From a virus (lineage: Duplodnaviria; Heunggongvirae; Uroviricota; Caudoviricetes), in the IMG/VR virus record IMGVR_UViG_2713896904_000005: a DNA stretch of 5,471 nt; one strand, 5' to 3'. The notes under the pieces are model-generated. The model did not search any database and was not told the DNA's origin. It worked only from the letters and a program-made list of their open reading frames with translations. Positions 790 through 4,839 of the stretch are shown here, one piece after another. The number at the start of each line of letters is the position of its first letter. Position 1 is the stretch's first letter. Made by a program: the position numbers and the translations under genes.

Positions 790-1179
790 TCAGGCGGCTG
801 CACCCGCCGGTTTCTCGTACTTCCTGATAGTGATCTCGACCTTCCCTTCCGGGATAACCGGTCCCCACTCCACCAGCATTCTTTTCACCTGACTGTCGTC
901 TTCCCACACACCCGCGTGGGTCAGGGCGTCAAACAGCGCCTTGTTATAGTTGTCCAGATCGCGGATCCGGTTATCCGGAGGAAACAACACGATCTCCACT
1001 GAAGCAGGTGCCGACGTTGGTTTTGGCAGACGACGTAACTGCTCAACTATTGCTGCACACGCCGCGCTCTGGAATTTGTGCCCCGCTGCGCTTATCAGGC
1101 TCTTACCAGCAAACGCCCCTTTGTTAGGGTGTCGCCAGTACGTGTTCACGCTGGGCGGAAAAGGCAGTATTAGCTTCAT
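790..1179 (-). CDS. rusA: Holliday junction resolvase RusA (crossover junction endodeoxyribonuclease)
   Basis: 129-aa ORF MKLILPFPPSVNTYWRH...DNRIRDLDNYNKALFDALTHAGVWEDDSQV matches E. coli RusA as I recall it (LPWPPSNNRYYR...[29 protein letters not shown]), including the acidic catalytic residues. Start overlaps the upstream gene by 4 nt (ATGA). Confidence 0.9.
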   Translation of the reverse strand: MKLILPFPPSVNTYWRHPNKGAFAGKSLISAAGHKFQSAACAAIVEQLRRLPKPTSAPASVEIVLFPPDNRIRDLDNYNKALFDALTHAGVWEDDSQVKRMLVEWGPVIPEGKVEITIRKYEKPAGAAA

Positions 1180-1502
1180 ACTTTCAGGCCCCTCTCATGT
1201 AACCAGTGGGCTGCACGCAGCCTGGCGTTTTCCTCACCGGCAAGCAGTGAGCGGATAATCCCGACCGCCTCGCTGTCGTCGTCCTTCACCGCGGTATGAA
1301 GCGTTATCCCCCGGGCCACGCCACGCTTTATCGTGATGACGCCTTTTTTCTCCAGCGCACGAAGATGCTCCACCGCTGCATTCACCGAACGGTATCCCAG
1401 CATGGTTGCCACCTCCTGATTGGTTGGTGGGAAGCCACGTTCTTTCTGATAAGAAATCAGCATATCCAGCACCTGCTGCTGGCATTGAGTTAACGTCGTC
1501 AT
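1176..1502 (-). CDS. LexA N-terminal DNA-binding-domain-like protein lacking the S24 peptidase domain (108 aa)
   Basis: MTTLTQCQQQVLDMLISYQKERGFPPTNQEVATMLGYRSVNAAVEHLRALEKKGVITIKRGVARGITL aligns colinearly with the LexA N-terminus ([68 protein letters not shown]). The ORF stops about 40 residues after the domain; no Ala-Gly site or Ser/Lys dyad. ATG at 1502..1500 overlaps the upstream TAA (TAATG) and follows a GGGGG SD-like run. The ORF track's alternative start at 1535 is a GTG. Confidence 0.7.
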   Translation of the reverse strand: MTTLTQCQQQVLDMLISYQKERGFPPTNQEVATMLGYRSVNAAVEHLRALEKKGVITIKRGVARGITLHTAVKDDDSEAVGIIRSLLAGEENARLRAAHWLHERGLKV

Positions 1503-1990
1503 TAAGCCCCCACGTAATTCCCTGACAGATACCACTCTTCACCCGATGCAGCGCGCTTGCTGCTTTTCCGTAAGCACCGCTCACGACGCGCCAGAAAATT
1601 GTTTCGTTCTGGCTGGGAGTGGCTTTCACGGAATGCCGCCATCCACACCGTTGCAGCACGACGGTATAAGCCCCTGGACTCCAGTTCTTCAGCCTGGCGG
1701 GTCAGGCACAAAATCTCCCGCGGGTCGTTAGTGCCGACATAGAAATTGCGCACAGGTCTGGTTTCACGAACTGGTTGTGGTTCCGCCTCCTGCGCTCTCT
1801 CAGTCAGGCGCGGGAAATGTCTGCGTGTATCCCCTTCACAACGGTGAGCCACACGACCACTCTGACGTAACTTGCTTGCTGACTGCAGAACGCGCTGCCG
1901 TGAGTAACCTGCAAAAGCATCCGCAATGTCTCCGGAAGTACACCCCGGATGGGCTTCAATGTATTTCTGAACTTCATTCAAAAGACTCAT
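1502..1990 (-). CDS. Hypothetical small regulator with a PerC-like C-terminal motif (162 aa)
   Basis: ORF directly after the O-like gene. ATG at 1990..1988 is 2 nt after the O stop (TGA 1995..1993) and is preceded by GGGGGTGA. The C-terminal segment LESRGLYRRAATVWMAAFRESH...RRERCLRK resembles the PerC/Pch family motif (GLxRRAAxxW...CL) from memory. The N-terminal part (LLNEVQKYIEAHPGCTSGDIADAFAGYSRQRV) looks like a small helix-turn-helix. The track's 1996 start is a GTG two codons upstream. Confidence 0.6.
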   Translation of the reverse strand: MSLLNEVQKYIEAHPGCTSGDIADAFAGYSRQRVLQSASKLRQSGRVAHRCEGDTRRHFPRLTERAQEAEPQPVRETRPVRNFYVGTNDPREILCLTRQAEELESRGLYRRAATVWMAAFRESHSQPERNNFLARRERCLRKSSKRAASGEEWYLSGNYVGA

Positions 1991-1992
1991 GA

Positions 1993-2934
1993 TCACCCCC
2001 TGAATCCTGCCGGGATCTGGCTGTAGTCCACTTTGTCGTAACTGGCTTTGAAGTACGGGTCTTCGCGTTTTTCGGTGTACGTGCTGACGGACGGCGATAA
2101 GCGCAGGGAAAGCTCATCCCATTTTTCCCGCAGCTTCGACGGGCTGAGCACGTTACGGCACCAGAACGGATCGCGACTGACGCGGCTGTACATCTCGCAG
2201 ATTTGTTTGTGAGTACGACCATCCTGCACACACATCAGGCGAATTTCGTTTGCCCAGGCTGTCCAGTTCGGTTCTTTGGGACGAACCACCTCGCCGTCAC
2301 ATTCGGCGGCCTGCTCGTACAGGGCGATGATTTTTTTCCAGAGCCACTGTGCGCAGGTCAAATCATCCTGCGTTCCCCACTGGCGCTTTTTAGGGCTGAA
2401 TACAACCGCATCAGGATGGCGAGTTAAAAACTCCTGTTCAGCCGTCTGCGTGTCCGGTTGCGAAGCGTCCGGACGAGAAGTTTTTTTATCTGACGGATCA
2501 TGTTTTGATTTTACTGACGGATCCCCGCCAGATTCTGACGGGTGAAAACCCGCTTTTTTGCCAGATTTCGACGCATCAAATTTTGACGGGTCAGATTTTG
2601 ATGCGTCAGATTTTGACGGGTCAGAATCTGACAATTGAGAAAATGCCGCTGCCTGAAGCTTCGCAATGTTAAGCTGATAAACATTCGACGCATTGCGGTT
2701 ACCCTGGCGACGCGCCTTACGCGTTAACCAGCCTTCTGCTTCCAGCCGTGCGATAGCCGTTCTGACGGTACTCATCCCCGCGCCAATCTGACGGGCAATG
2801 GTTTCAATTGATGGCCAGCACACACCTTCGTCATTACTGAAATCAGCCAGGCGGGCCATAATTGCCACGCTGGATAATTTCATGCCTGACGCTGCGCAAC
2901 CATCCCATACATAGCCGGTTAATTTAGTGCTCAT
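1993..2934 (-). CDS. Replication initiator protein, lambda O-like (N-terminal helix-turn-helix, iteron-encoding linker)
   Basis: 313-aa ORF with N-terminal MKLSSVAIMARLADFSNDEGVCWPSIETIARQIGAGMSTVRTAIARLEAEGWLTRK, typical of phage replication-initiator HTH domains. AGAGG SD 6 nt before ATG 2934. Low-complexity linker (DPSKSDASKSDPSKFDASKS) is encoded by a tandem DNA repeat array, the lambda O arrangement. Follows cro/CII-like genes. Confidence 0.85.
   Translation of the reverse strand: MSTKLTGYVWDGCAASGMKLSSVAIMARLADFSNDEGVCWPSIETIARQIGAGMSTVRTAIARLEAEGWLTRKARRQGNRNASNVYQLNIAKLQAAAFSQLSDSDPSKSDASKSDPSKFDASKSGKKAGFHPSESGGDPSVKSKHDPSDKKTSRPDASQPDTQTAEQEFLTRHPDAVVFSPKKRQWGTQDDLTCAQWLWKKIIALYEQAAECDGEVVRPKEPNWTAWANEIRLMCVQDGRTHKQICEMYSRVSRDPFWCRNVLSPSKLREKWDELSLRLSPSVSTYTEKREDPYFKASYDKVDYSQIPAGFRG
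2486..2635. repeat. Putative phage origin of replication: array of 15-bp iterons (consensus TCAGATTTTGACGGG) plus flanking AT-rich tract, inside the O-like gene
   Basis: Five contiguous 15-bp units at 2561..2635 (ccagatttcgacgca / tcaaattttgacggg / tcagattttgatgcg / tcagattttgacggg / tcagaatctgacaat). Further copies of the TGACGG core at 2491, 2515 and 2536. A T-rich stretch at 2477..2490 lies on the side expected for an unwinding element. Confidence 0.7.
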
Positions 2935-2943
2935 GACCGACCT

Positions 2944-3282
2944 CTATTTCCCTGAATTTACGACGAAACTGTTCGAGCGGGCTGAAGCACTCATGCTCAT
3001 AGCCTTCACGGAGGTAGATAACCCGTTGTGTTTCCGGCTCCCAACGAATGACTCTGACGGGCACTCCGTAGTGATCTTTGAACCAGCGGTTAACTTGTCG
3101 CAAAGGACTGTCTCCTTCTGCCGGTTGAAATCACCCACAGCCCACTCTGCAAAGCTGTGGGTTACAATTTCCCTGTCACCTGGTACATTCACTGCATAGC
3201 AATACTCCACCTTCGCTTTTCCACCCGGTACAGGAAGCGCAATCAGTTGCGAGCGACGGTAGTGTGTTGTTAAACTGTTCAT
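2944..3282 (-). CDS. Hypothetical protein (112 aa), no recognisable domain
   Basis: ORF between the CII-like and O-like genes. ATG 3282..3280 overlaps the upstream stop (ATGA) and is preceded by GGAGA (rc of 3292..3296). Position and coupling argue for a real gene. Confidence 0.55.
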
Positions 3283-3842
3283 GCGTTAGTTTCTCCACAG
3301 TCACGACACGCCACGGCGCCCGGAGCTGCACACTCGCGGGCGTCATTACTTTCTGAAATGCAAAAGATTTTGTAGACCAGTGCTGCATGCTCCTGCAGCT
3401 TCGAAATTGAGAGATACAGCTCGTCGTTAATTGCTGTCTTCTCATGCGGTTCCACTACACCGTCTTCGATTGCTGAACGAATCTGTTTTGAATAACTGCC
3501 GATCTGTTCAATGACTTCCAGCAGACGCTGGTTAATATCGGCGTTGTCCACATCCTCGACGTCAGGAAGAGACACAAAGACGCCATTTGCAGACTGCGCC
3601 ACAGCGTCAGCAATGAAGTGAGTTCCACCAGCACGTTGCAAAATCATTGCCCATCCCAGCGGGAAAATCTGATCGCCATCGGCACGAAGGCGGTTAAATA
3701 ATGCGTTCTCTGTTACATCCAGCCAGTCAGCTGCTTCAGCGTAACCACCCGGCAACTTTGCGATAGTTTTTCTGACAGCTTTCACGTACCACTCAGGCTG
3801 TTTTTCTACTTTCCAGTGATGCTTACCCACGGTTAGCCTCAT
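3279..3842 (-). CDS. CII-like phage regulatory protein (187 aa; CP76/YdaT-like position after cro)
   Basis: Second gene of the rightward operon, 31 nt after the cro-like stop. N-terminal half has an HTH-like stretch ([42 protein letters not shown]) loosely resembling lambda CII. C-terminus carries four Cys (C-x9-C-x7-C-x2-C). No clear SD before ATG 3842, and no in-frame alternative start upstream before a stop at 3900..3902. Confidence 0.6.
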
Positions 3843-3873: not shown

Positions 3874-4074
3874 CTAATCTTTCGGATAGATATCCGGTCT
3901 TAAGTCAGATTTCGTAATTGCACCTGATGTGTATTGCTCAAGTTTTTTAGCCAGCACAAAACTGGCTTTTTTATAGCCATTGAAAACCAGCCGTAAGTAG
4001 CCAGGTGTTGAGCCAACTTTTCCGGCCAACTCGCCCTGCTGTTCTTTGGTTAAAGAGTCCCAATACGCTTTCAT
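3874..4074 (-). CDS. Cro-like helix-turn-helix repressor (66 aa)
   Basis: MKAYWDSLTKEQQGELAGKVGSTPGYLRLVFNGYKKASFVLAKKLEQYTSGAITKSDLRPDIYPKD is a small Cro/YdaS-type HTH protein with the characteristic C-terminal ...LRPDI motif. Divergent from the CI-like gene. ATG 4074 has GGAGG (rc of 4085..4089) upstream; the track's 4098 start has no SD and falls in the operator region. Confidence 0.8.
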   Translation of the reverse strand: MKAYWDSLTKEQQGELAGKVGSTPGYLRLVFNGYKKASFVLAKKLEQYTSGAITKSDLRPDIYPKD

Positions 4075-4164
4075 ACAATATGTACCTCCGGTGTACATAT
4101 TACATGATTAAAATGAACCTTCAAGATACTTGTACCTTAACGGTACAAGGGTTTTAATTTCGTT
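4075..4164. promoter_or_regulatory. Divergent promoter/operator region (OR-like) between cro-like and CI-like genes
   Basis: Two 19-bp inverted-repeat sites: 4080..4098 ATGTACC-tccgg-TGTACAT (6/7 half-site symmetry) and 4130..4148 TTGTACC-ttaac-GGTACAA (perfect). Candidate cro promoter on the minus strand: -35 TTGAAG (rc of 4119..4124), 16-bp spacer, -10 TAATAT (rc of 4097..4102). Candidate cI promoter -10 TTTAAT at 4153..4158, just before ATG 4165. Confidence 0.6.
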
Positions 4165-4839
4165 ATGAAAACAATCCATGACATCCGGCGGTCTAACGCC
4201 AGAAAACTGAGAGATGGTGTTGGCGGGAATTCTTCCTTTGCCACTATGATTGATCGCGAGCCAACCCAGACCAGCAGGTTTATGGGAGATGGTGCTACTA
4301 AAAATATCGGTGACAGCATGGCACGACACATCGAAAAATGTTTCGACCTGCCTGTAGGATGGCTCGATCAAGAACACCAGACAACGAACATCACAAAAAA
4401 ACCTGATGTTTCAATCACTAATAAACAAATCACATTAGTCCCTGTCATATCATGGGTACAGGCCGGAGCATGGAAAGAAGTTGGATATTCTGAGGTTGAT
4501 TTGAGCACAGCAGAAACGTATCCCTGCCCTGTACCCTGTGGGGAAATGACTTATATCTTGCGGGTGATAGGTGATTCAATGATTGATGAGTACCGCCCGG
4601 GAGACATGATTTTTGTCGATCCTGAAGTACCTGCCTGCCACGGTGACGACGTTATTGCATTGATGCACGATACAGGTGAAACCACCTTCAAAAGGTTGAT
4701 AGAAGATGGGACACAGCGTTATCTCAAAGCGTTAAACCCAAACTGGCCTGAGCCTTACATTAAGATCAACGGTAATTGCTCTATAATTGGTACTGTGATT
4801 TTCTCAGGAAAACCAAGAAGATACAAAATCAAAGCCTAA
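4165..4839 (+). CDS. CI-like phage repressor with N-terminal HTH and C-terminal LexA-type S24 autopeptidase domain
   Basis: 224 aa. HTH region (FATMIDREPTQTSRF...MARHIEKCFDLPVGWLD). Probable cleavage site VQAG-AW (compare lambda CI VQAG-MF). Ser nucleophile in LRVIGDSM and Lys in TTFKRL, matching the LexA/CI Ser-Lys dyad context. Divergent from the cro-like gene. Confidence 0.9.
   Translation: MKTIHDIRRSNARKLRDGVGGNSSFATMIDREPTQTSRFMGDGATKNIGDSMARHIEKCFDLPVGWLDQEHQTTNITKKPDVSITNKQITLVPVISWVQAGAWKEVGYSEVDLSTAETYPCPVPCGEMTYILRVIGDSMIDEYRPGDMIFVDPEVPACHGDDVIALMHDTGETTFKRLIEDGTQRYLKALNPNWPEPYIKINGNCSIIGTVIFSGKPRRYKIKA

Follow-up and report, generated by a model that had tools for sequence, protein, structure and literature searches.

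The stretch of DNA studied here (the window, 5471 bp; IMG/VR record IMGVR_UViG_2713896904_000005) corresponds to the immunity region and early-right operon of a temperate phage belonging to the SfIV/SfII/SfV type. Its replication initiator resembles lambda O and is followed by genes for a PerC-like protein, a LexA-like DNA-binding protein and the RusA resolvase, with no gene for a helicase loader (Table 1). The initiator and this missing loader are the subject of the present analysis, and the main result is that, among related loci, the type of the C-terminal tail of the initiator co-varies with the type of loader encoded beside it. Shigella phage SfIV is 97% identical to the window over 94% of its length. 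The same layout occurs in SfIV, SfII, SfV, PhiR29 and other phages, and many Stx2c/Stx2a phages contain parts of the window. The initial annotation of this DNA called the layout atypical, which is correct relative to lambda only: 504 of the 5426 complete genomes of E. coli contain 80% or more of the window, and the layout is thus very common in enterobacterial prophages.

The absence of a P- or DnaC-type loader after the initiator, as initially annotated, was borne out by Walker A, Pfam and tblastn searches. The strict Walker A pattern misses the GKPGTGKN of DnaC; a relaxed pattern and tblastn panels were used as well. Neither the strict nor the relaxed scan of the open reading frames (ORFs) of the window detected a credible Walker A-bearing ORF, the sole relaxed match lying in an out-of-frame ORF within the initiator gene, and a panel of 14 reference loaders and helicases (including E. 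coli DnaC, five phage DnaC clades, two phage DnaB-like, four P-like and one unknown) had no tblastn match in the window at E < 1e-3. Beyond the window, the complete SfIV genome (39,758 bp) was also negative with the panel and had no credible Walker A motif; its 54 annotated genes include no helicase, primase, P or DnaC, and its uncharacterised early proteins have no relevant Pfam domain, several of them being without any Pfam match. As positive controls, Pfam recognised the phage DnaC of locus L100 as IstB_IS21 (E = 2e-18) and the P gene product of locus L154 as Phage_lambda_P (PF06992, E = 1.9e-58). Neither the window nor the SfIV genome contains a helicase-loader gene, which for phages of this type refutes the alternative of a loader gene lying in another part of the genome. 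SfIV can be induced by UV, gives plaques, can be propagated in lytic growth and establishes lysogeny (PMC3851460). Its viability without a loader gene implies that a loader-less module suffices in a dnaC+ host.

The initiator, for which 2372 homologues were found, is a modular chain consisting of an HTH_36 domain, an iteron-encoded linker, a lambda-O-type C-terminal domain, a spacer and an IPAGFRG end. The N-terminal match to HTH_36 (PF13730), at residues 23-70, reaches 42.9 bits, the gathering score being 25, with weaker Pfam matches to GntR, MarR and DnaD_N, and there is no Pfam match to Phage_rep_O (PF04492), a family in which lambda O itself scores E = 5.7e-36. The AlphaFold2 (AF2) model has a confident winged helix-turn-helix domain with a helix/hairpin winged-helix fold at residues 1-98, a disordered segment (102-160), a confident helical segment (161-280) and a low-confidence end. 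Winged-helix proteins of the MarR/ArsR type dominate the Foldseek matches of the full model, and the sequence search of the PDB returned just weak MarR-type matches to the N-terminal domain. The C-terminal domain, modelled with a predicted local distance difference test score (pLDDT) of about 90, aligns by BLASTP with lambda O residues ~173-270. The initiator is 31% identical to lambda O over 216 aligned positions, with higher identity over the core, and lambda O finds the window by tblastn at E = 5e-24. Pfam gave no match to the isolated C-terminal half even at E = 10. The whole-library search retrieved 2655 relatives of the C-terminal domain, fused to many kinds of N-terminal domain (HTH_36, Phage_rep_O-like, DUF1376-like).

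In lambda, genetics and biochemistry have established that the C-terminal domain of O is the part that works with P, so that an O-type C-terminal domain without P needs explaining. The core of this domain does not provide the explanation, since initiators from viral contigs that are followed by P align with that of the window without gaps in this region, at 58-70% identity. A 10-residue insertion in the C-terminal domain (the "long type") was considered as a mark of loader-less modules and rejected, because loci that contain P also have the gap-free long type.

Table 1 Features of the window (positions on the 5471-bp stretch)
Feature	Position	Strand	Support or remark
Replication initiator, 313 residues plus stop	1993-2934	-	PHROG 391 "replication initiation O-like", E 1e-134
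N-terminal winged-helix domain, residues 1-98, presumed origin-binding	2641-2934	-	Pfam HTH_36, E 4e-11
Iteron-like array inside the initiator gene, 15-bp period, partly palindromic GTCAnnnnnTGAC; presumed origin	2485-2641	.	Repeat families D1/D2, inverted repeats I1-I9
Lambda-O-type C-terminal helical domain, residues 161-280	2095-2454	-	BLASTP against lambda O, E 8e-26
Variable low-confidence spacer, residues 281-303	2026-2094	-	Sequence and length vary in the homologue alignment; pLDDT 47-60
DnaT-type C-terminal peptide YSQIPAGFRG, residues 304-313	1996-2025	-	Proposed docking site for host DnaB-DnaC (partner inferred)
PerC-like protein, 164 residues, YfdN-type	1502-1996	-	Pfam PerC, E 7.5e-9; PHROG 1324 "transcriptional activator"
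LexA DNA-binding-domain-only protein, 119-residue ORF	1176-1535	-	Pfam LexA_DNA_bind, E 3.7e-19
RusA Holliday-junction resolvase	790-1179	-	Pfam RusA, E 1e-14; marks the end of the replication/nin-like block
DUF4222 small protein, 59 residues	2924-3103	-	Pfam DUF4222, E 8.6e-19; end overlaps initiator start by 11 nt
112-residue ORF	2944-3282	-	PHROG 1170, E 3e-70; annotated version in SfIV
CII/CP76-like gene	3279-3842	-	
Cro-like gene	3874-4098	-	
cI-like S24 repressor	4165-4839	+	Sole gene of this list on the plus strand

The end of the initiator is closely similar to that of the host protein DnaT, which serves the PriA restart primosome as adaptor and whose gene lies directly upstream of dnaC in E. 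coli. DnaT of E. coli K-12 ends in ..NTVSEPDSQIPPGFRG and the window initiator in ..KVDYSQIPAGFRG; SQIPAGFRG and SQIPPGFRG are identical at eight of nine positions and stand at the extreme C-terminus of both proteins. Among 107 DnaT cluster representatives the motif reads I-P-x-G-F-R-G, with P, R, T, F, K, H or Q at x. The 29 aligned homologues of the initiator (55-94% identity) also keep IPxGFRG with a variable x, P308, G310, F311 and R312 being invariant or nearly so, and the preceding spacer is variable. The comparison of the C-terminus with DnaT-type and O families that had been proposed for this protein was apt: it reveals homology to the O C-terminal domain and a DnaT-type end peptide, but the DnaT DNA-binding domain (PF17948) is absent, as neither Pfam nor NCBIfam gives a DnaT match, and the initiator is also without the N-terminal domain of DnaT. 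Deep homology between the O-type C-terminal domain and the DnaT DNA-binding domain is not claimed, hhalign giving it a probability of 0.5%.

The distribution of tails was studied in a sample of 155 related loci, 119 with a DnaT-type tail and 36 with another tail. None of the 119 has P, five have a DnaC homologue and 114 have no loader, whereas 35 of the 36 others have P, none has DnaC, and the one without a loader has a truncated ORF. Among distinct sequences, the 33 associated with P have the end ..HWN[TS].EAWENTL or the lambda-type end ..TDWIYGV.., and the 49 without P the end ..IPxGFR[GSV]. When C-terminal domain and tail are clustered together at 80% identity, the 10 clusters with a DnaT-type tail include none with P, against six of six clusters with other tails (p about 1e-4). 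The same types of N-terminal domain occur in both classes. P and a non-GFRG tail are found together in lambda, Mulock, Klebsiella phage 5, Pm34, Edno5 and phiARM81mr; Klebsiella phage ST101-KPC2phi6.3 ends in ..SGFRS and has no P. The literature searched, the coverage of which was incomplete, held no statement of this dichotomy between tails and loaders, nor of IPxGFRG as shared by DnaT and phage initiators.

In the five DnaT-tailed loci that do have a loader, a DnaC homologue of 248 residues begins 7 nt beyond the initiator; it matches IstB_IS21/Bac_DnaA and shares 48% identity with E. coli DnaC. Starting in reverse from this phage DnaC, 80 viral loci were retrieved, 75 of which have an upstream ORF, and all 75 of these ORFs end in ..IPPGF[RS]G. 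In 24 of them the O-type C-terminal domain is missing, as in Escherichia phage 666R9 (tail ..IPPGFRG), which indicates that the tail is a module in its own right. The association extends to modified tails: Aeromonas phage pAEv1818 has the DnaT DNA-binding domain PF17948, the tail ..KPPGFN and then DnaC, and Vibrio phage PGA a DUF1376 N-terminal domain, the tail ..PPPGWE and then DnaC. Where the neighbouring DnaC belongs to a distant clade (27-32% identity), the initiator tail is unrelated.

Some loci deserve mention for themselves. The "primosomal protein I" of pAEv1818 (L266, 1051-1968; PF17948, E = 1.6e-16) together with its DnaC resembles a phage version of the dnaT-dnaC operon. Vibrio phage K75 (OZ195745.1; L263, 2105-3431) has an initiator with an O-type C-terminal domain and a third kind of tail, ..SEGDPQFRF, followed by a 143-residue protein without similarity to P or DnaC, a candidate unrecognised loader for a DciA-type host. 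Pantoea P0045 and P0068 combine an HTH_36 N-terminal domain and a C-terminal domain of the window type with a lambda-type tail (..NTDWIYGIEE..).

Inside the initiator gene, the pattern TCTGACSCRTCAAAA has 8 matches against 0.61 expected, a number that none of 200 shuffles reaches. This iteron array encodes the disordered SDPSK/SDASK linker (residues ~99-160; pLDDT below 50). Homologues differ at the linker (2455-2640, alignment columns ~101-170) by whole SDxSK repeat units, so that the iteron copy number and the linker length co-vary. By analogy with lambda, in which ori lies inside O, the array is presumably the origin. DnaA boxes are not enriched in the window (13 matches against 10.7 expected).

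Since DnaT-type tails are followed by DnaC or by no loader and lambda-type tails by P, the tail can be read as a "loader address", of the DnaT type for DnaC(-DnaB) and of the lambda type for P. In that case, the phage would supply the origin and the protein that recognises it, and helicase and loader (DnaB-DnaC) would come from the host. The HTH_36 domain would bind the iterons within its own gene, the O-type C-terminal domain and the tail would project on the flexible linker, and IPAGFRG would dock the host DnaB6-DnaC6 onto the initiator-origin complex, making a phage loader unneeded. Judging from co-variation and gene linkage only, we give about even chances to this reading, namely an initiator-only module whose tail recruits the host DnaB-DnaC. 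The initial annotation had also suggested that the initiator recruits the host DnaB/DnaC, and the evidence favours this part of its proposal; the peptide strings that it quoted do occur in the protein, but the contact would be made by the last ~7 residues and not by the quoted stretch of the C-terminal domain. A more general proposal, which we find plausible but would not bet on, is that such tails are interchangeable loader-address peptides on a flexible spacer: IPxGFRG would be the element by which DnaT and initiators recruit DnaC-DnaB, ..TDWIYGV../..EAWENTL would dock P, and SfIV-type phages would mimic the tail of the host restart adaptor. If the address model holds, the initiators of Pantoea P0045 and P0068 should be followed by a P gene.

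If recruitment by the tail is real, it would explain initiator-only replication in a class of prophages that is very common among enterobacteria and includes the serotype-converting Shigella phages as well as many relatives of Stx phages, and it would predict that these prophages depend on hosts having DnaC. The manner in which DnaT recruits DnaB/DnaC was stated to be unknown in papers of 2014 and 2026 (PMC4132743, PMC13377028). For the recruitment of DnaB-DnaC by the PriA-PriB-DnaT preprimosome, the comparative pattern directs attention to one particular peptide of seven residues, which can be mutated.

Several observations weigh against tail-mediated recruitment. The sample of loci is strongly weighted towards enterobacteria and redundant, amounting to only ~16 independent clusters at 80% identity, and the association between tail and DnaC could partly reflect the common descent of an initiator-dnaC cassette instead of a contact. 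No obvious AT-rich unwinding element was seen beside the iterons, where the lowest GC content is 0.375. The 2026 paper favours, speculatively, the N-terminal domain of DnaT as the recruiter of DnaB/DnaC (PMC13377028). The codons for F-R-G include, in many loci, an AGGGGG that probably serves the following gene as its ribosome-binding site. Finally, the tail of DnaT may have a different binding partner, for example PriA or PriB.

This last point leads to an alternative in which the DnaT-type tail docks on PriA or PriB and a PriA-type primosome is nucleated at the origin, as in phiX174 and ColE1-type replicons, DnaB-DnaC arriving indirectly via the host DnaT. The documented contacts of DnaT are indeed with PriA (C-terminal domain; a hydrophobic, conserved interface of 640 A2) and with PriB (linker). 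DnaT residues 154-179 are unmodelled in crystal structures, and the text of the cryo-EM paper names no DnaT residues of the hydrophobic PriA interface. Nevertheless, the phage tail travels with an adjacent DnaC gene (all 75 loci of the reverse search) and not with a PriA- or PriB-like gene, a modified form of it persists in the phages of Vibrio and Aeromonas that encode a DnaC themselves, and tail and P exclude each other, P being a replacement for DnaC and not for PriA. We therefore regard docking on PriA or PriB as unlikely, if well worth keeping in mind.

It could also be that the O-type C-terminal domain, or the initiator as a whole, contacts the host DnaB directly in the manner of an iteron-plasmid Rep, the tail being irrelevant to helicase recruitment and acting as a stability or degradation signal, as an aid to oligomerisation, or being the shadow of the ribosome-binding site of the next gene. 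Initiator-only replicons that rely on the host DnaB/DnaC are normal for plasmids (R6K pi, pSC101 RepA, RK2 TrfA), and the likely Shine-Dalgarno (SD) role of AGGGGG extends to dnaT-dnaC itself. Yet the degree of identity that the core of the C-terminal domain shares with P-needing initiators means that the core alone does not mark loader-less modules, and the association between tail and loader is exceptionless in the 155 loci. Moreover, the G-F-R codons vary (GGA/GGG/GGC/GGT, TTC/TTT, AGG/AGA/CGG/CGT/CGC), and these residues are kept with non-SD codons (CGG TCA, CGT GGT), in stop contexts such as CGG TCA TGA and at differing distances from differing downstream genes; their persistence through synonymous and non-SD codons implies that selection acts on the protein. 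Direct recruitment of DnaB with an idle tail thus seems quite unlikely, and if the tail were irrelevant the finding would shrink to an ordinary loader-less layout of a kind already catalogued. As for the junctions themselves, the end codons of the window initiator, TTC AGG GGG TGA (1993-2010, minus strand), serve the following gene at once as its likely Shine-Dalgarno sequence and as its overlapping start region, and the junction of dnaT and dnaC in E. coli has the same construction (TTC AGA GGG TAA CG ATG; L261, 3976-3990).

A further possibility is that the phage does encode a loader, one that sequence comparison fails to recognise, the candidates being the DUF4222 protein, the 112-residue ORF, SfIV gp30, gp34, gp35 or gp36, DUF2303 and DUF968. 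Helicase loaders are often replaced in phages by non-homologous ones (PMC11087808), and the early SfIV proteins without any Pfam match leave room for such a protein. The family of the 112-residue ORF is confined to P-less loci in this sample (95 loci, 10 groups), an exclusivity that the sampling bias makes weak evidence. Nevertheless, no gene family is common to all 23 P-less locus groups; DUF4222 occurs in 13 of these and also in 5 of the 20 P-containing groups, and is therefore not specific to loader-less modules. The genes that follow near-identical initiators also vary: beside initiator C-terminal domains that are 98-100% identical to that of the window, perC-lexA-rusA is usual (60 loci), and dam-lexA-rusA, dam-rusA and perC-dam-rusA are found as well. 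An unrecognised loader consequently appears improbable.

The two genes between the initiator and rusA had been described as PerC-like and LexA-like and free of ATPase motifs, which agrees with Pfam, in which PerC and LexA_DNA_bind are their only matches. One of these proteins might still be a functional substitute for P: the PerC-like gene holds the position of P, its start overlapping the initiator stop, by which it is probably translationally coupled, and its N-terminal half has a weak PHROG match to Ren-like and MarR families. Neither protein, however, has a Walker A motif, an IstB_IS21/Bac_DnaA domain or similarity to lambda P, Ren or DnaC; for the PerC-like protein, BLASTP against lambda P gave nothing significant and PF06992 no match. 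The domains that Pfam assigns to both are those of transcription factors, and in several viral contigs both genes are missing beside initiator C-terminal domains that are 98-100% identical to that of the window. Given the lack of an ATPase motif and this variable presence, the PerC-like and LexA-like proteins were rejected as loaders; their genes are accessory, and a substitution of P by either is very hard to credit.

Regarding these two proteins themselves, the N-terminal half of the PerC-like protein has no Pfam match even at E = 10, its weak winged-helix matches coming from PHROG (MarR-type and Ren-like) and NCBIfam (BilQ), and its C-terminal half is a PerC/ANR-type domain. The LexA-like protein probably starts at the ATG at 1502, which gives 108 residues, as in the annotated SfIV gp43 (108 residues). 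It has no Peptidase_S24 domain, and the NCBIfam lexA model is matched over positions 1-91 only; it may act on SOS boxes as a LexA mimic that cannot be cleaved.

Compared with known systems, the module appears to be an initiator-only replicon of the kind seen in plasmids, assembled from parts of lambda O and of DnaT. With lambda O-P it shares an initiator gene that carries its own iterons in the segment for the flexible linker, a homologous C-terminal domain, and its position in the early-right operon after cro- and cII-like genes; unlike lambda, it has an HTH_36 instead of a Phage_rep_O N-terminal domain, a PerC-like gene in the place of P, and an IPAGFRG end where lambda O ends in ..TDWIYGVDL. 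The likeness to DnaT and the dnaT-dnaC operon consists of IPxGFRG at the very end of the protein and, in related phages, of tail-bearing initiators whose genes immediately precede that of a DnaC homologue, in the manner of dnaT. Nevertheless, the window initiator has neither PF17948 nor the DnaT N-terminal domain, has no dnaC adjacent to it in the window, and would be specific for an origin and not for a fork structure. The prophage modules of the "O-like + DnaC-like" kind (Escherichia phage 666R9, Shigella phage POCJ13, Rac-type) also have the tail ..IPPGFRG, and some share the O-type C-terminal domain and the HTH_36 N-terminal domain (L095), but they encode their own DnaC, the homologue that is 48% identical to that of E. 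coli, and the window phage has none.

The Rep proteins of iteron plasmids (R6K pi, pSC101 RepA, RK2 TrfA) are likewise single winged-helix, iteron-binding initiators that rely on the host DnaB-DnaC. Their origins usually need DnaA boxes as well, unlike the window with its unenriched boxes, and there is no sequence relationship beyond the winged-helix class. Loader-less HTH_36 modules are already on record in Stx phages, in which the lambdoid regions Eru5, Eru6, Eru8, Eru11 and Eru13 have no O or P and an HTH_36 (PF13730) protein near cI; that work is descriptive and proposes neither a tail motif nor a mechanism (PMC8951638). In SfIV, the "replication module" itself has been described without remark on the absent loader (PMC3851460). 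Finally, DopC, a domesticated O-like protein, combines an HTH_36 N-terminal domain with a DnaT C-terminal motif (Brezellec et al. 2017; PMC5509034), which shows recombination of the same parts. DopC is, however, chromosomal and paired with the P-like loader DopE, a combination of DnaT-like element and P that never occurs in the phage sample, and its motif may be IPxGFRG or only the DnaT DNA-binding domain.

Two further observations concern the genes upstream of the initiator. The 112-residue ORF and the DUF4222 ORF overlap in different frames, each with family support. PHROG 20047, a family of 63-residue proteins, matches the first 63 residues alone of the 112-residue ORF. The longer ORF may thus be a read-on across the true DUF4222 gene; alternatively, the two ORFs may be a genuine overlap or a frameshift pair. 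In the cI-like repressor, Pfam finds Peptidase_S24 alone (residues 93-212) and the N-terminal ~90 residues match no helix-turn-helix model; PHROG groups these residues with repressors.

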